Shown here one piece after another: positions 33,815 to 39,269 of a stretch of DNA of 64,000 nucleotides. The translations under genes were made by a program, and so were the position numbers. The DNA comes from Gallionellaceae bacterium. Lineage in GTDB: Bacteria > Pseudomonadota > Gammaproteobacteria > Burkholderiales > Gallionellaceae. The stretch spans positions 26,536-90,535 of the forward strand of contig WSYA01000001.1 of assembly GCA_009773615.1 (NCBI GenBank), in the 5' to 3' direction. Position 1 is the first letter of the stretch. Each line of letters starts with the position of its first letter. A model generated the notes under the pieces. The model did not search any database. It saw only the letters and a program-made list of their open reading frames with translations, and had not been told where the DNA came from.

Positions 33815-35032
33815 ATGCCGGTGAATCTTTTAGCGCCCGTCGCGGCACAACTGTTGCCCGTTGCGGGCATTTCTTTGGGTATCGCGGAGGCGGGCATTAA
33901 GCGCGCCGACCGCAAAGACCTGCTGGTCATCAAGCTGGATGAAGGCGCGACGGTCGCGGGGGTGTTTACCACCAACCGTTTCTGCGCCGCCCCCGTCATC
34001 GTGGCGCGCAAACATCTTGCCGCAGGCAAGGGTATCCGTGCGCTGGTAATCAACACCGGCAACGCCAACGCGGGAACCGGCGAACAAGGCTTGAGCGCCG
34101 CGCGCAGCACTTGCGAGGCGCTGGCCAAGCTGCTGGGCTGTGCGCCCGAGCAAGTGCTGCCGTATTCCACCGGCGTTATCATGGAGCCGCTGCCGGTCGA
34201 TAAAATTATCGCAGGCATGCCGCAAGCCATCGCCAATCTGAAGGCCGACAATTGGTTCGACGCCGCGCAAGCCATCATGACCACCGACATCGTCGCCAAG
34301 GCCGTGTCGCGTCAGGTGCAGATCAATGGCAAGACCGTCACTGTCACCGGCATGTCCAAAGGCTCCGGCATGATCCATCCCAACATGGCCACTATGCTGG
34401 GTTACATCGCCACCGATGCCGCCATCGCAACTCCGCTGTTGCAACAGATCGTGTCCGAGGCGGCCAACCGTTCGTTCAACTGCATTACGGTTGATGGAGA
34501 TACTTCCACCAACGACGCGCTGATGCTCATCGCCAGCGGCAAGAGCGGTGTAACGATTGATGCCGCGAACTGTGCCGCATTGCAAGCCGTTGTCACCGAA
34601 GTCGCCACCGCGCTGGCGCAAGCCATCGTGCGCGACGGCGAAGGTGCGACCAAGTTCATCACCATCCAGATCGAAGGCGGCCGCGACGAAGCCGAATGCA
34701 AAAAGATCGGCTACGCCATCGCGCATTCGCCGTTGGTCAAGACCGCGTTCTTCGCCTCCGACCCCAACCTTGGTCGCATCCTCGCGGCCATCGGCTACGC
34801 GGGCGTGAGCGACCTCAATGTCGAAACTTTGAAGCTGTACCTCGACGATGTGCTGGTGGCAGAGAAAGGCGGACGCGCCGCGAGCTATCAGGAAGCCGAC
34901 GGCCAGCGCGTGATGCAGCAAAGCGACATCACCATCTGCGTGGTGCTGAATCGCGGCGCGGTGAACGCCACGCTGTGGACATGCGACTTCTCTTACGACT
35001 ACGTGAAGATCAACGCGAGTTACAGAAGCTAA
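33815..35032 (+). CDS. argJ: Bifunctional ornithine acetyltransferase / N-acetylglutamate synthase
   Basis: 405 aa. The autoprocessing site region [12 protein letters not shown] (ATML-type) and the C-terminal NASYRS. Confidence 0.92.
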
Positions 35033-35036
35033 ATAT

Positions 35037-35124
35037 CACCACAGAGACACAGAGAGCACAGAGGAAAAACAAATCTGGCGCGGCTGTGTCTTTTGCTTTT
35101 GATCTTCTCGGTGTCTCTGTGGTG
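35037..35124. repeat. CACAGAGA-type palindromic element, copy 2 (degenerate)
   Basis: The left arm CACCACAGAGACACAGAGAGCACAGAG (35037-35063) pairs with the shorter right arm CTCGGTGTCTCTGTGGTG (35107-35124). The internal TGGCGCGGCTGTG resembles the TGGCGTGTCTGTG of copy 1. Confidence 0.75.
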
Positions 35125-35133
35125 AACCTTCTT

Positions 35134-36000
35134 ATGGATAAACTCGATCACTTTCTCACTCGCGCCGAAGGCCTGCTCGCCCGTCTGGAAAACATCTTGC
35201 CCGGCGCTCAGCCGCAGGCTCCCGATTGGCAAGCCGCTGCCGCCTTCCGCTGGGATCACCAGCTGCGCACCCTGCATCCCGTACCCAACTTCCAGCGCAT
35301 CGCGCTCGCCGACCTGCTCGGCATTGACGACCAGAAGCAGCGCATCCAGCAGAACACCCTGCAATTCGTGTGCGGCGGTACCGCGAACAACGTGTTGCTC
35401 TCCGGCGCACGCGGCACGGGCAAGTCGTCGTTGGTCAAAGCCCTGTTGAACGAACATGCCGCGCAAGGCCTGCGCGTGATCCAGATCGACAAGCAGGGCC
35501 TGATCGACCTGTCGCACATCGTCGGCCTCGTGCAAGGTCGCGCCGAGCGTTTCATCCTGTATTGCGACGACCTCTCCTTCAACGATGCAGATCCCGGTTA
35601 TCAATCTCTCAAAGCCGCGCTGGATGGTGATCTGGTGGCGTTCTCCGACAACCTGCTGATCTACGCGACATCGAATCGCCGCCATTTGATGCCGGACTAC
35701 ATGCAGGACAACCTCGCCACCAAGCACGTTGGCGACGAAGTGCATCCGGCGGAAAGCGTGGAAGAAAAGGTGTCGCTGTCCGAGCGCTTCGGGCTGTGGA
35801 TTTCGTTTTATCCGTTTGCACAGGATGAGTATCTCGCGGTGGCGGGGCATTGGCTGGCGCATCACGGGTGGGGGCAGGGTATGACGGATGAAGTGCGCAC
35901 GGCGGCGTTGCAGTGGTCGTTGATGCGGGGTTCGCGCAGCGGGAGAGTGGCGGGGCAGTTTGCGAAGGATTGGTGCGGACGCTCGTCATTCCGGGCTTGA
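35134..36000 (+). CDS. DUF815-type P-loop ATPase
   Basis: MDKLDHFL... start at 35134, after the repeat. Walker A is LLSGARGTGKSSLVKAL. The ORF-track extension to 34696 overlaps argJ and the repeat. Confidence 0.75.
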   Translation: MDKLDHFLTRAEGLLARLENILPGAQPQAPDWQAAAAFRWDHQLRTLHPVPNFQRIALADLLGIDDQKQRIQQNTLQFVCGGTANNVLLSGARGTGKSSLVKALLNEHAAQGLRVIQIDKQGLIDLSHIVGLVQGRAERFILYCDDLSFNDADPGYQSLKAALDGDLVAFSDNLLIYATSNRRHLMPDYMQDNLATKHVGDEVHPAESVEEKVSLSERFGLWISFYPFAQDEYLAVAGHWLAHHGWGQGMTDEVRTAALQWSLMRGSRSGRVAGQFAKDWCGRSSFRA

Positions 36001-36008
36001 CCCGGAAT
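35988..36008. repeat. REP-like hairpin ATTCCGGG-CTTGA-CCCGGAAT overlapping the stop codon of the DUF815 gene
   Basis: Perfect 8-bp stem. The TGA at 35998-36000 lies in the loop. Confidence 0.7.
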
Positions 36009-36101
36009 CCAGTTAAATACAAAAGGCAGTAGCTCGTGAACACTCCTTTTAGACATCTCAAATGAGATACTGTGGGCCGATTTTCTGAATGGAAAATAGT
36101 G

Positions 36102-36329
36102 ATGACTACCTCAACAATGATTCATGTGCGCGTTGATAATGAAGTTAACACGCAAGCAGCGGAAGTACTAGAAGCGATAGGTCTATCAGTTTCGGATGCG
36201 GTAAGGCTTTTTCTGAAACGCGTGGTGGCAGAGCAGGGTTTGCCCATCGAGCTCAAAGTGCCGAACGTTGAAACTCGTGCCGCAATGGAAGAGTCGCGTG
36301 CCATGATTCGCGCGCGCCGCGCCCGCTAA
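36102..36329 (+). CDS. RelB/DinJ-family antitoxin-like protein, no adjacent toxin, possibly 3'-truncated
   Basis: MTTSTMIHVRVDNEVNTQAAEVLEAIGLSVSDAVRLFLKRVVAEQGLPIELKVPN is the DinJ/RelB ribbon-helix-helix pattern. The stop codon TAA (36327-36329) is the first three bases of the flanking inverted repeat. Confidence 0.7.
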   Translation: MTTSTMIHVRVDNEVNTQAAEVLEAIGLSVSDAVRLFLKRVVAEQGLPIELKVPNVETRAAMEESRAMIRARRAR

Positions 36330-36659
36330 ACCGTTCGTCCTGACTAGACGTAGCCGTATAGAAGGATGGGCGAAGCCCGCTGGTTTGTTTATTCAAAGTC
36401 AACATCGTCGGGGGTAGCCCGACAGCTAGTCACTTTCTTTTGCTTCGCCAAAAAGAAAGTAACCCAAGAAAAGGCGACCCCGGTTTGCCGCCCCTTCGGG
36501 GTTCCCTCGATCATTCGCAAACAAGCGGGGCTGCGGAACTCGCGCTACGCGCTCAGACAGTCCTCGCCTAAACCTCCGCTTGTTTGCGAATGATCGAGGC
36601 GGCGCACAGGGGAGGGAAAATCAAATTCAAAATCTAAGAGTGGGCACTTTGTGCCCACT
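36327..36659 (+). repeat. Structured repeat unit, left copy (IR-L, 333 bp)
   Basis: It shares long identical blocks with the reverse complement of 37889..38263, for example CGTCGGGGGTAGCCCGACAGCTAGTCACTTTCTTTTGCTTCGCCAAAAAGAAAGTAACC. It contains at least five hairpins. Confidence 0.85.
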
Positions 36660-36746
36660 TGACTAAGCGTGATGCGCGTAGTCAAAACAACTCTATTCCG
36701 GTACATTCTATTCTTCTTGCCCAACTTAACTTAGCCAATATTGATT

Positions 36747-37880
36747 ATGTATAACTTCGACTACATTACATCAAAAGAATTTCGAAACTCATTAGAGGCT
36801 GACTATACCGAAATGCATAGCTGTGCCGATGTGAAGGCTTGGAAAAGCGTGCAGGTGCTAGCAGGTAGCATCATTGAAACTTTGCTAATTGACTATTTGT
36901 CCGCAACGAAAAATACTGAAAGGCCATCCAAGGATCCCCTAAAGTTAGATTTGGCAGAAGCTATTTCAATATGCAGAAAAGAGAAGGTTTTGTCTGATAG
37001 AACGGCTGATTTATGTAGCGTTATTAAATCCTATCGGAATTTGATTCATCCTGGTCGTATGCTGCGCCTAGGTGAACAAGCACCAGATCAAGGAAGTGCA
37101 ACAATTGCAACTGCCTTAATTGAAATGATCACAAATGAGCTTGCTGAAACTATGCGTGCATCGGTCGGCCTCACTGCTGAGCAGATACTTTCAAAAATTC
37201 AGCGCGACGCAAATTCATTGAATATTTTGAAACATCTATTGGTAGAGGTTTCGGAGCATGAAAAAATACGTCTGTTACTGGAGTTAATACCATCTGCTCA
37301 TCAAGAGGTTATTGAAGATGATTCAATAGTTGAATTTGATGAGTTTGTTAAACGAAAAAAGCACCTTGAGTTGGCTTACCAAGTCATCCTTGATTCAGTA
37401 AGCGATGAAGCTAGGAAACGCATAGCATCAGAATATGTTCGTGTACTTAGAGAAGAGGATGGGCAAACGGTGCAGCGCTATGGAAAGGCATTTTTTAAGC
37501 CACGTGATATGAAATTCTTATCTGGATCATCTAAATTGATGGTGAGCGAGCATTTGCTTGGAAATATGCCTCCGGTTTTTAATTCGGAGTCCTCTTTTAA
37601 TGTAGCTACAGGTCTTGCTGGTTATCTTGATTCATCGTTAATTTCAAAATGGCTAGACCCGTTTGTACGCACACTTGTTTCCTCGCTTGATGATTCTATT
37701 AAGACAAGATGTCGAGCTACGTTAATTATGGAAACGTGGTTAATAGGCAATGAAAATTTACAAGCATTATTGAAGCGATTGGACACATATATCAGCATCT
37801 ATAAATCAAATAATGACTCTGTTAAAAGTGAATTGATCCAGTCAATAAGAAATGAAATTGAAATAGATAACACAATTTAG
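36747..37880 (+). CDS. Hypothetical protein, 377 aa, AT-rich; N-terminal HEPN-like helical domain (tentative) and C-terminal helical-repeat region
   Basis: Long intact ORF (TTG at 36741, first ATG at 36747) in a region where spot-counted lines are 25-45% GC against about 63% in the flanks. The motif SVIKSYRNLIHPGRMLR resembles the HEPN R-x(4-6)-H motif but is one residue short. No obvious Shine-Dalgarno. Confidence 0.7.
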   Translation: MYNFDYITSKEFRNSLEADYTEMHSCADVKAWKSVQVLAGSIIETLLIDYLSATKNTERPSKDPLKLDLAEAISICRKEKVLSDRTADLCSVIKSYRNLIHPGRMLRLGEQAPDQGSATIATALIEMITNELAETMRASVGLTAEQILSKIQRDANSLNILKHLLVEVSEHEKIRLLLELIPSAHQEVIEDDSIVEFDEFVKRKKHLELAYQVILDSVSDEARKRIASEYVRVLREEDGQTVQRYGKAFFKPRDMKFLSGSSKLMVSEHLLGNMPPVFNSESSFNVATGLAGYLDSSLISKWLDPFVRTLVSSLDDSIKTRCRATLIMETWLIGNENLQALLKRLDTYISIYKSNNDSVKSELIQSIRNEIEIDNTI

Positions 37881-37888
37881 CAAAGAAT

Positions 37889-37926
37889 GATGGGCACGAA
37901 GTGCCCATCGTGTGGTTTTGGGTTTT
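37889..37926 (+). terminator. Intrinsic terminator 9 nt after the orphan ORF (also the inner hairpin of IR-R)
   Basis: GATGGGCAC-GAA-GTGCCCATC followed by GTGTGGTTTTGGGTTTTG. Confidence 0.65.
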
Positions 37927-38263
37927 GACTCTCTATCCCCTGTGCGCCGCCGAGTAGCGCAGGCTGGTCAGGGGATTTCGGCGAGGACTGTCTGAGCGCG
38001 AAGCGCGAGTTCCGCAGCCGCCTGACCAGTCGAGCAACGCAGGGAACCCACGAAGTGGGCGGTAAACCGGGGTCGCCTTTTCTTTGGTTACTTTCTTTTT
38101 GGCGAAGCAAAAGAAAGTGACTAGCTGTCGGGCTACCCCCGACGGTTTTGCATTTGATTTAAATTGTTGGGTTACGCTGCGCTAACCCAACCTACAAAAC
38201 CGGCGGGCTTCGCCCATCCTTCGATACACCGCGCTATGCGCGGCACTCAGGACGAACGGTTTA
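37889..38263 (-). repeat. Structured repeat unit, right copy (IR-R, 375 bp, inverted)
   Basis: Its reverse complement aligns module by module with IR-L. It carries an extra hairpin TTGGGTTACGCTGCGCTAACCCAA (38167-38190). Confidence 0.85.
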
Positions 38264-38264
38264 C

Positions 38265-39269
38265 GTGAAATTAAAAATTAGAGATGCCGCTTTGAATACA
38301 CAAACCGAAAAGATAGTAGAAGTCTCCGCTGCCGTTCTGCAACGCCCCGACGGCTCCTTCCTCCTCGCGCAACGTCCCGCCGATAAAATCTGGGCCGGCT
38401 ATTGGGAATTCCCCGGCGGCAAAATCGAGCCGGGCGAAACAGCGCATCACGCTTTGGTGCGCGAACTGCGCGAAGAGTTGGGCATCGAAGTGCAAACTGC
38501 CTATCCGTGGCTTACGCGAGTGTTCACTTATCCGCATGCCACGGTGCGTCTGAGTTTCTTTCGCGTGACAGAGTGGAGCGGGGAGATGCATCCGCATGAA
38601 GGGCAGGAGTTTGCTTGGCAAGAGCCCCTCTCCCTAACCCTCACTCAGGGAGAGGAGAGAGGACGGTTATCGGTTGATCCTATCCTCCCCGCCAACGCCC
38701 CCATCCTGCGCGCGCTGGAATTGTCCTCCTTATATGCCATCAGCAATGCCGCCGAGCTGGGCGTGGAGCCGTTTCTGGAAAGGCTGAAAGCCAAGCTGGA
38801 TATGGGTTTGCGGCTGGTGCAGTTGCGCGAAAAGAATCTCTCCCGCGACGAGTTGCGCGCGCTGGCGCGTCGCGTCGTGGCATTGGCTCATGCACGCGGT
38901 GCGAAGGTGCTGCTCAACGGCGATGTGGCGCTGGCGCAGGAGGTGGGTGCGGATGGCGTGCAGCTGACCGCCACGCAGCTTGCGGAGCTAACTGAACGCC
39001 CCGTTCTGGATTGGTGTGCGGCGTCCTGCCACAACGCGGAGGAGTTGCGCCGTGCGGAAGTATTGGGTTGCGATTTCGCGCTGTTGAGTCCTGTGTTGCC
39101 GACTAAATCACATCCGGGTGCACCGCATCTGGGCTGGGATAACTTCGCCTCGATTGCGGCGGGTTCGTCTATTCCGGTGTATGCGCTGGGCGGTTTGACT
39201 AGCGACGATATGCAAAGCGCATGGCAGCGCGGCGCACACGGTATCGCCTTATTGCGTCAGGCTTGGTGA
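38265..39269 (+). CDS. NUDIX (MutT-like) hydrolase fused to a ThiE/TENI-like domain
   Basis: 334 aa. The Nudix box is [24 protein letters not shown]. The C-terminal half (LVQLREK...GADGVQL...YALGG) resembles a thiamine-phosphate synthase fold. The GTG start lies 2 nt after IR-R; a TTG at about 38292 is an alternative. Confidence 0.8.

Follow-up and report, generated by a model that had tools for sequence, protein, structure and literature searches.

A HEPN-fold, α-solenoid protein encoded between inverted foldback arms in a Gallionellaceae genome: a candidate cargo of an exchangeable single-gene defense cassette

The described systems that come closest to the gene analyzed here combine a HEPN-type domain with a second domain in one protein. 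DARNA (formerly PD-T7-3) of Escherichia coli is a 456-amino acid (aa) protein with an N-terminal HEPN domain (residues 1–159) carrying R117x4H122, and a C-terminal helical domain that resembles the HEAT protein Pds5 (bioRxiv 10.64898/2026.02.22.705581). It assembles into a dodecamer of HEPN dimers, and its C-domains bind single-stranded DNA exposed by phage SSB, upon which tRNA anticodon loops are cut and the infection is aborted (bioRxiv 10.64898/2026.02.22.705581). At its N-terminus, BxaP carries a DUF4145 domain (HHpred probability 98.5%), and DUF4145 (PF13643) belongs to the HEPN clan (PMC10799925; PMC3710099). Its C-terminal domain is eEF3/Gcn1-like HEAT; the protein protects E. coli ~1,000-fold against T4 in an abortive-infection-like manner, which P121A weakens, and its abortive infection covers T4/T7 (PMC10799925). 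In RAZR (PD-T7-4), a DUF4145 domain is a catalytic RNase acting through R146 and H154, with x7 spacing (PMC13017515), and in the monogenic Ishtar an N-terminal DUF4145/DUF3644 HEPN domain belongs to a system that clears plasmid RP4 (bioRxiv 10.64898/2026.07.06.735840). Here, we analyze a gene for a 377-aa protein with a predicted N-terminal HEPN domain and C-terminal α-solenoid, set between two inverted-repeat arms in a 64,000-nucleotide stretch of a Gallionellaceae metagenome-assembled genome (MAG; GenBank GCA_009773615.1, contig WSYA01000001.1, positions 26,536–90,535 of the forward strand). We call this whole stretch the window, and the space between the arms the slot.

The window protein follows the two-domain plan of DARNA and BxaP, namely an N-terminal HEPN domain and a C-terminal HEAT-like domain in one stand-alone protein. 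Like DARNA, it joins an N-terminal HEPN and an all-α, HEAT/Pds5-like C-domain in one polypeptide, is encoded on its own, and is not confined to defense islands; the two differ in length (377 versus 456 aa) and in the motif, which is R-N-x2-H in the window protein and the canonical R117-x4-H122 in DARNA. With BxaP, it shares the N-terminal DUF4145-type HEPN domain, the C-terminal HEAT-like helices, a monogenic make-up, and a local pattern, R-x-x-x-(x)-H-P ... A-P, in which inspection by eye pairs P121 of BxaP with P113 of the window protein, a nearly invariant residue. The BxaP family measures ~500 aa and is embedded in BREX or type I restriction–modification (RM) loci, whereas the window family is mostly solitary. 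RAZR resembles the window protein in having a DUF4145-type domain with non-standard R...H spacing, but its zinc finger is N-terminal and its HEPN domain C-terminal, while the HEPN domain of the window protein is N-terminal. Compared by description, Ishtar is likewise monogenic, with an N-terminal HEPN domain and a patchy distribution, and differs in its C-domain, a β-sheet/α-helix fold instead of a solenoid.

We are highly confident in the structural and contextual description of the gene and the element that holds it. A full-length Foldseek search is uninformative on the N-domain, which was therefore modeled separately. Modeled alone, residues 1–142 adopt a HEPN fold in the AlphaFold2 prediction (mean confidence, pLDDT, 88.7). 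Searched with Foldseek against the PDB, the domain model retrieved HEPN proteins as most of its top 50 matches, with template-modeling (TM) scores of 0.4–0.64 and probabilities up to 1.0. These include YutE/DUF86 (1ylm), TT1696 (1ufb), AF_0298 (2hsb, TM 0.64), the sacsin HEPN domain (3o10), HepT toxins (7bxo, 5yep, 6m6u, 7ae*), Csm6' (8pe3), MtlR (6kcr), and HI0074. The consistency of this list and the probabilities up to 1.0 lead us to assign the HEPN fold despite weak E-values. DUF4145 is the sole Pfam family that recurs among the homologues, always below threshold (E ≤ 0.1 in 14 of 55, best 0.0066). An original prediction, made from the letters of the window and a list of ORFs (open reading frames), had proposed a HEPN-like N-terminus; the Foldseek matches of the domain model and the recurrent DUF4145 matches bear it out.

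The same prediction had pointed to an R/H motif whose spacing is one residue short of RNxxxH, and this reading also holds: SYRNLIHPGR is present, three residues separate R97 from H101, and both are invariant across phyla. The Pfam DUF4145 alignment ends at residue 99, where the one-residue shortening falls. Across the 55 homologues aligned, down to ~35% identity, S95, R97, L99, I100, H101, P102, R104, R107, and E110 are invariant, and together they mark the conserved stretch S95-Y-R97-N-L99-I100-H101-P102-G-R104-x-x-R107-x-x-E110. Residues W32, K33, G40, S41, and E44 of helix 2 are likewise conserved in this alignment, and more than 90% of the homologues have R at position 94, where the window protein has K.

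The full-length AlphaFold2 model, built with 55 homologues, is wholly α-helical (pLDDT 94, predicted TM score 0.82). Its top Foldseek matches in PDB and BFVD are armadillo (ARM)/HEAT-repeat proteins; they are weak (E ≥ 8e-3, TM 0.25–0.37) and reflect the C-terminal 235 residues. The original prediction had read helical repeats in this part of the protein, and both the all-α model and the ARM/HEAT-like matches agree with it. The solenoid is presumed to be the sensor or regulatory part.

Although first described as an orphan, the protein has 306 homologue clusters at E ≤ 1e-3, nearly all of them full-length. Almost all of the best 120 of these 306 clusters measure 365–390 aa, cover 93–100% of the query, and are 41–61% identical to it, and the nearest relative outside the source MAG is only 61% identical; the sole 100% match comes from ‘Gallionellaceae bacterium FD173’, which identifies the window's source. 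A profile of the N-domain (residues 1–142), scored against 1.84 billion representatives, matched 2,941 clusters at E ≤ 1e-3, 1,411 at E ≤ 1e-10, and 346 at E ≤ 1e-30; the 150 best of the 2,941 nearly all share the same length and architecture. A genome survey that took one genome per species yielded 32 homologue loci, spread over Beta- and Gammaproteobacteria, Acidobacteriota, Chloroflexota, Gemmatimonadota, Bacteroidota, Planctomycetota, Actinomycetota, and Binatia. The G+C content (GC) of the gene was below that of its distant flanks in 30 of 30 loci, by a median of about 0.10, in hosts with GC of 0.45–0.70. The gene is encoded on its own, has spread horizontally, and exceeds every host compared in AT content, as the original prediction had suggested for the window. 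Annotation has largely passed the family by. PADLOC, NCBIfam, and PHROGs gave no significant family match for the window protein, the family is absent from PADLOC-DB v2, and a sequence search of the PDB with the full-length and N-domain profiles returned nothing but a chance match to tubulin; two homologues (P0040 and P0047) are labeled ‘DUF4145 domain-containing’ in UniRef. The family is large, with thousands of clusters spread over at least eight phyla, and lacks annotation; it has the architecture of DARNA and BxaP and no detectable sequence relation to them.

In the window, the ORF lies on the + strand and runs from TTG 36741 or ATG 36747 to 37880. Residues F4, D5, I7, R13, L16, D19, and E22 are nearly invariant in the family alignment of 55 members, and because residues 4–22 are kept in homologues, we place the start at ATG 36747, which gives 377 aa. 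In the public annotation of this MAG, the gene call (P0001; contig L168, 6001–7068) begins at M23 and yields 355 aa. Since the 22 residues before M23 are kept in homologues, this call is probably too short, and the deposited annotation probably misses the N-terminal 22 residues (nt 36747–36812). GC is 0.384 in the ORF and 0.577 in the remainder of the window; a 300-bp profile stays at 0.38–0.42 exactly across 36600–37950 and at 0.55–0.64 on either side. The ORF, its AT-rich composition, the motif, the RelB neighbor, and the 3' hairpin of the original prediction are all present, but the flanks have a GC of ~0.58 and not the ~63% then estimated.

The original prediction lacked the inverted arms. 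On either side of the ORF stands an imperfect inverted repeat of ~330 bp (Table 1). In an arm-versus-arm BLAST, the two repeats align with identities of 80% (271 nt) and 79% (68 nt), and their outermost 17 nt are perfectly complementary. Each arm carries at its inner end a stable hairpin with a T-run in the outward direction. The centroid energy of the left hairpin is −15.5 kcal/mol (z-score −4.1); the right one has an 11-bp GC-rich stem followed by the T-run (−17.9 kcal/mol, z-score −3.3). A strong terminator had been proposed immediately after the gene, and a hairpin with a T-run is indeed found there, but it is the inner hairpin of the repeat, with a mirror copy at 36639–36659.

Table 1. 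Coordinates of the cassette and of the domains of its cargo protein in the window.
Feature	Coordinates	Strand	Basis and remarks
Left inverted-repeat arm	36327..36657	.	Repeat search, arm-versus-arm BLAST; outer 17 nt TAAACCGTTCGTCCTGA overlap the relB stop codon
Inner hairpin of left arm	36639..36659	-	Terminator scan; terminator-like for leftward transcription, T-run on the minus strand
Conserved inner motif GTAGTCAAAACAACTCTATTCCGGTACATTC	36678..36708	+	Possible promoter or 5' adapter for the cargo
Cargo gene (coding sequence), HEPN + α-solenoid protein, 377 aa	36747..37880	+	ORF call, homologues, alignment, AlphaFold2 model
N-terminal HEPN-fold domain, DUF4145-like, residues 1–142	36747..37172	+	Domain model, Foldseek, Pfam DUF4145
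Motif S91–R107 SVIKSYRNLIHPGRMLR	37017..37067	+	R97 = 37035–37037, H101 = 37047–37049
C-terminal all-α solenoid, ARM/HEAT-like, residues 143–377	37173..37877	+	AlphaFold2, Foldseek
Inner hairpin of right arm, intrinsic-terminator-like, 9 nt past the stop	37887..37911	+	Terminator scan
Right inverted-repeat arm	37891..38263	.	Ends 1 nt before the GTG of the NUDIX/ThiE gene; holds GGCGAGGACTGTCTGAGCGCG at 37980–38000

The core 21-mer GGCGAGGACTGTCTGAGCGCG occurs within the window in these two arms only and in at least 120 metagenome contigs, which makes the arms members of a dispersed repeat family. Their consensus spans ~270 bp, with more than 85–90% conservation over the central 200 bp; the arms of the window continue outward into an extension that fewer copies share. 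The hairpin stems are kept while their sequences differ between copies (GGTGGGCA/TGCCCACC, GGAGGGCA/TGCCCTCC, GGCGGGCA/TGCCCGCC, GTGCGC/GCGCAC), and this covariation argues that the structure is functional. The inner motif, (..CAAAACAATTCGAC)TCCGGTACATT(G), lies at 36697–36707 in the window, 40 nt before the ATG. In 13 of the 14 elements with its core TCCGGTACATT (up to two mismatches allowed), the core precedes the called cargo ORF and points the same way, mostly from a distance of 20–50 nt. One reading of the motif, TAGnCA-N17-TACATT, would make it a weak sigma-70-like promoter; a generic sigma-70 scan did not call it, so we treat it as a putative promoter. Rfam gave no match over 35900–38400, and the plasmids of PLSDB contain no copy of the arm.

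The metagenome loci form a sample seeded on one exact core 21-mer and hence biased to one arm subfamily, so the counts that follow hold among the matches listed. When the whole arm was mapped on 119 of these loci, 55 inward-facing (-,+) pairs as in the window emerged, together with one (+,-) pair and one same-orientation pair. The inner gaps of the 55 inward-facing pairs are bimodal: 25 are empty (82–272 bp), with the two hairpins back to back, 30 are loaded (723–1859 bp), and none falls between. All 30 loaded slots are AT-rich, with GC of 0.39–0.48 inside and 0.52–0.63 outside, and nearly all hold one dominant ORF of 150–380 aa (called mechanically, as were all cargo ORFs); two comparable ORFs occur in L090, L122, and L139. 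A further 61 arms are single, 32 of them on contigs that end on the partner side. The other 29 have at least 1.5 kb of inner-side sequence and no partner detected (e.g., L053, L078, L082, L088, L098, L136, and L161); these arms may stand alone, their partners may have diverged strongly, or the slots may contain more than 3 kb of cargo.

The loaded slots encode 28 distinct, mutually unrelated cargo proteins. Pfam matches among them comprise Abi_alpha (1.4e-35), Mrr_cat with Mrr_N, a CAP12/Pycsar-type TIR, TIR_2, RelA_SpoT, DUF2971, NA-iREase1, Trypsin_2, MUG113, nucleoside deoxyribosyltransferase, LprI, DUF2569, and MauJ. PADLOC adds PDC-S33 (1.8e-122), PDC-S67, PDC-S47, PDC-S02, PDC-S45, PDC-S35, and PDC-S31, a type IV methyl-directed restriction endonuclease (mREase_IV), TIR effectors, and PycTIR. 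Known or candidate single-gene defense systems thus make up roughly a third of the 28 cargos, far above their level around the homologues of the HEPN-solenoid gene. Two further cargos caught our attention by eye, unconfirmed by profile search: one (L128:677–1711, the same as in L151) shows a CxxC...CxxC zinc ribbon and IRHTLMH (R-x4-H), reminiscent of RAZR, and the other (L146:2099–2806) has a HEPN-like FRDNYAAH (R-x5-H). No HEPN-solenoid homologue is encoded in the 120 arm-bearing metagenome loci listed, so the arm repeat is not specific to this gene. The HEPN-solenoid protein was also rejected as a transposase that would move the element, since the cargos of other elements are unrelated to it and include no recombinase; no transposase or integrase Pfam family was matched among the 28.

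Orthologous sites show that the content of the slot changes. The slot upstream of the NUDIX (mutT)/ThiE gene is conserved in related genomes, but with other contents. Where the window has the HEPN-solenoid gene, L061 has Abi_alpha (the flanking gene matches at 84% over 775 bp), L122 has two membrane ORFs (73% over 1.9 kb), and L124 has a 164-aa ORF (74% over 2.2 kb). The flanks of L096 and L120 match each other at 92% identity and argJ of the window at 81%, and each of the two loci contains another cargo; further orthologous sites that differ in cargo are L146/L147/L100 and L093/L086/L072. Different cargos at orthologous sites imply that the arms are resident and the center is exchanged. The 61%-identical homologue, from a Gallionella MAG (L002/L013), occupies another site, after lnt, with a left arm that is 70% identical and a right arm reduced to a 19-nt remnant. 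Arm-plus-cargo units can thus also relocate or persist for long. In L002 (9310–9420), a perfect (GCTACCA)n array of ~15 copies interrupts the right-arm remnant and is followed by a HigB/RelE-like ORF.

Comparable inverted repeats were found around none of 36 other homologue loci, and the closest short contigs (L169 and L170) contain no arms. The arms are therefore not a trait of the whole HEPN-solenoid gene family, which is not tied to the foldback vehicle. Empty palindromic foldbacks, ~80% self-complementary, also turned up in Caballeronia (L012:4922–5469, ~550 bp) and in a Lysobacteraceae MAG (L027:154–626, ~470 bp). They share with the window arms only the GTNACTTTCTTT...AAAGAAAGTNAC hairpin module, which hints that related elements form a far broader superfamily across Proteobacteria.

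The element has the terminal inverted repeats, the multiple copies (at least 120 loci), and the lack of an internal transposase that characterize miniature inverted-repeat transposable elements (MITEs) and mobile insertion cassettes (MICs). It does not have the layout of an integron cassette (an ORF with attC in direct orientation), as it consists of isolated pairs of ~270–330-bp inverted repeats. No target-site duplication, recombinase, or arm-free pre-insertion site was identified for the slot elements; the outer ends of the arms read TA(A)...(T)TA, indistinguishable from the palindrome, and their outer limits vary between copies. In exchanging small, mostly single-gene, highly diverse, and often defense-related cargo at a fixed position, the slot resembles integron cassettes, MICs/MITEs, the minimal mobile elements of Neisseria, and the P2/P4 prophage hotspots; the terminal inverted repeats and missing transposase recall MICs/MITEs, and the swapping of cargo between conserved flanks recalls the Neisseria elements and the prophage hotspots. 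It differs from integrons and insertion sequences (ISs) by its ~270–330-bp inverted arms, in place of direct attC sites or 15–40-bp IS ends, and from all of these comparators in that its conserved flanks are a dispersed repeat present at many sites. No account of the foldback slot turned up in keyword and sequence-string searches of the open-access literature; as these did not reach subscription journals or repeat databases, the evidence for novelty is weak.

By analogy with DARNA and BxaP, we lean, modestly, toward an immune function for the window protein, as a phage- or mobile genetic element (MGE)-triggered RNase carried in an exchangeable defense cassette. The RNase activity, trigger sensing, and defense phenotype that we infer would be as follows. 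The HEPN domains would dimerize into a composite RNase site with R97 and H101 (and R/K94). The enzyme would stay idle until the solenoid bound an infection-specific ligand; once activated, it would cleave cellular RNA (tRNA being the precedent) and cause growth arrest on the pattern of DARNA, BxaP, and RAZR, resulting in abortive infection or an anti-MGE effect. As for the element, the promoter and terminator roles and the exchange mechanism that we infer would be as follows. The arm hairpins would insulate transcription of the slot in both directions, and the inner motif would drive the cargo. The arms would remain at chromosomal sites as portable homology, where incoming arm-cargo-arm DNA could replace the cargo in either orientation, most likely by homologous recombination through the highly similar arms.

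More tentatively still, the slot may be a hitherto undescribed exchange platform of which the HEPN-solenoid gene is one cargo, encoding a new DARNA-like RNase family that uses R-N-x2-H. As part of this same possibility, the platform would carry one AT-rich, usually defense-type gene at a time, at many chromosomal sites of Gallionellaceae-like bacteria. If the protein is active, the definition of catalytic HEPN sites would be widened and a widespread single-gene immune system added to those described. The foldback slot possibly outweighs the protein in importance. Because it concentrates single-gene defense systems, it could be mined for new defense genes in the manner of defense islands, integrons, and prophage hotspots, and it suggests a simple, recombinase-free way of shuffling bacterial immune genes.

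Several results weigh against reading the protein as an immune RNase of the DARNA/BxaP kind carried by a defense-exchange slot. The N-domain Foldseek E-values are weak (0.04–1.2), and DUF4145 scores 13.1 bits on the window protein (E 0.11, residues 22–99) against a gathering threshold of 23.1 bits, so no curated model passes. The R97-x3-H101 spacing (R-N-x2-H) lies outside the defining Rx4-6H; the alternative R94-x6-H101 would fit, but residue 94 is K in the window protein. The PADLOC hidden Markov model for PD-T7-3 matches BxaP (1.4e-4) and neither the window protein nor three of its homologues at E ≤ 10. In hhalign comparisons with a 28-sequence BxaP alignment, two profiles of the family (A1 and, for the N-domain, A2) reached probabilities of 1.3% and 0.2%, and a single-sequence comparison with BxaP was likewise not significant. 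Some of the cargos do not look like defense genes, for instance the LprI-like secreted protein and several transmembrane proteins. Foldback arms accompany the HEPN-solenoid family only in the window and, in degenerate form, in the one Gallionella MAG. Moreover, several homologue loci sit among housekeeping or core metabolic genes without mobile-element markers, and PADLOC found among 149 neighboring ORFs one retron, one type II RM system, and a few candidate families, a modest enrichment at best.

The best hhalign alignment with BxaP, itself non-significant, places R97/H101/P102/A-P113 on R110/H115/P116/A-P121 with a one-residue gap. The gene had been proposed as a stand-alone defense or toxin candidate, and this proposal has gained from the architecture, which is that of the single-gene abortive-infection RNases DARNA and BxaP, but membership in these families by sequence failed. 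We therefore describe the window protein as having the same architecture and plausibly a similar way of working, in a separate, shorter sequence family that is not a demonstrable member of either.

Among the other explanations, it is unlikely, though worth weighing, that the HEPN domain is non-catalytic, as in sacsin, MtlR, and the nucleotide-binding domains of the KNTase_C type, and that the protein serves as an adaptor, regulator, or ligand binder, perhaps still in biological conflicts. The motif, with R-x3-H outside Rx4-6H and K instead of R at position 94, would fit such a protein, and the structural matches include the non-catalytic HEPN proteins sacsin (3o10), MtlR (6kcr), and HI0074. 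Set against this are the strict conservation of SYRNLIHPGR across phyla at ~35% identity, including N98, which gives the ‘RN’ typical of catalytic sites, and the precedent of RAZR, whose DUF4145 domain is catalytic despite the x7 spacing between R146 and H154 (PMC13017515).

We give a similarly low probability to the view that the target is plasmids or other mobile elements, or that the gene confers addiction to or stabilization of the cassette, rather than defense against phages. The clearance of plasmid RP4 by Ishtar, monogenic and with an N-terminal DUF4145/DUF3644 HEPN domain (bioRxiv 10.64898/2026.07.06.735840), points that way, as does the location of some homologues inside integrase-bearing elements; the helical-repeat C-terminus of the window protein is nearer to DARNA and BxaP than to the α/β C-terminus of Ishtar.

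A pairing with the upstream antitoxin gene, which would make the protein the toxin of a type II system, is highly improbable. A relB/dinJ gene does lie upstream on the same strand (36072–36329; Pfam 2.2e-16, TIGR02384 5.9e-20), and in two other loci (L014 and L034) a small XRE-type helix-turn-helix gene lies 20–50 nt upstream of the homologue. The distance between relB and the ORF is 417 bp, however, and contains the whole left arm with its hairpin. The TAA stop codon of relB provides the first three bases of the left arm; the arm thus starts only where relB ends, which leaves this gene outside the cassette. None of ~40 homologues examined has a RelB gene beside it, and in L096 and L120 the slot comes directly after argJ, without the DUF815 gene and without relB. 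HEPN toxins characterized so far pair with MNT antitoxins and not with RelB (PMC3710099; bioRxiv 10.64898/2026.02.22.705581). On these grounds, RelB was rejected as a partner, and the adjacency, co-transcription, and conserved pairing expected of a RelB-family toxin–antitoxin module are not found here. The antitoxin-like neighbor of the original prediction is real, then, but the functional context drawn from it is not upheld. The relB gene is itself solitary, with no adjoining toxin gene, and its local GC of ~0.47 is below that of the genome. That the protein is an ordinary housekeeping or lineage-specific one, its low GC a matter of amino acid composition, is scarcely credible: several homologues do lie among core metabolic genes and defense enrichment of the neighborhoods is weak, but the family is patchy over at least eight phyla without conserved synteny, its closest member outside the MAG is only 61% identical, the same slot holds unrelated genes in sister genomes, and GC is depressed in 30 of 30 hosts with GC of 0.45–0.70.

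The genomic neighborhoods of the homologues are diverse. In 31 homologue loci, no neighbor is conserved within three ORFs to either side, and Pfam shows no dominant family in the 149 neighboring ORFs. Mobile or defense genes accompany some of them: a Paraburkholderia locus has two integrases, HEPN_AbiU2, and an antirepressor; that of Burkholderia lata has a type I RM system, a resolvase, and a type II-A retron; and others have an integrase with IS91, an integrase, or a PIN/MazE pair. The defense context proposed for the gene is thus seen at some integrase, RM, and retron loci, but a classical defense-island context appears only weakly. The strongest evidence from context is the place of the gene in the slot of a foldback repeat family, since the other cargos of this family are in large part known or candidate defense genes.

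Some smaller observations concern these and the neighboring genes. In the window, the mechanically called DUF815 AAA-ATPase ORF (34696–36000) is 434 aa long and overlaps argJ by ~340 nt; the public call (L168:4169–5188) is 339 aa, the Pfam match begins at residue 180 of the mechanical ORF, and the long N-terminal extension is probably not translated. An EVE-domain gene lies near the homologue in L022. In a Phycisphaeraceae MAG (L043:8190–9983), a single case, the homologue follows a same-strand gene for the RNA ligase RtcB after only 15 nt; RtcB mends 2',3'-cyclic-phosphate RNA ends of the kind made by HEPN RNases. Homologues directly downstream of ribonucleotide reductase occur in one betaproteobacterial MAG (L015:5810–9991, with an intein) and in three Lysobacteraceae MAGs (L023, L024, and L027), whose upstream regions hold ribonucleotide reductase and a TSCPD-domain ORF; this neighborhood may reflect repeated insertion at one kind of site, or chance. 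In L004/L005, which encode a 57%-identical homologue, repetitive extragenic palindrome (REP)-like repeats GGGAATTCTGGGGACACCTTACTTAATTC flank the gene (117–142 and 1441–1524), and a REP-associated tyrosine transposase-like ORF lies beside it (L005:~1960–2123), a repeat vehicle other than the foldback arms.

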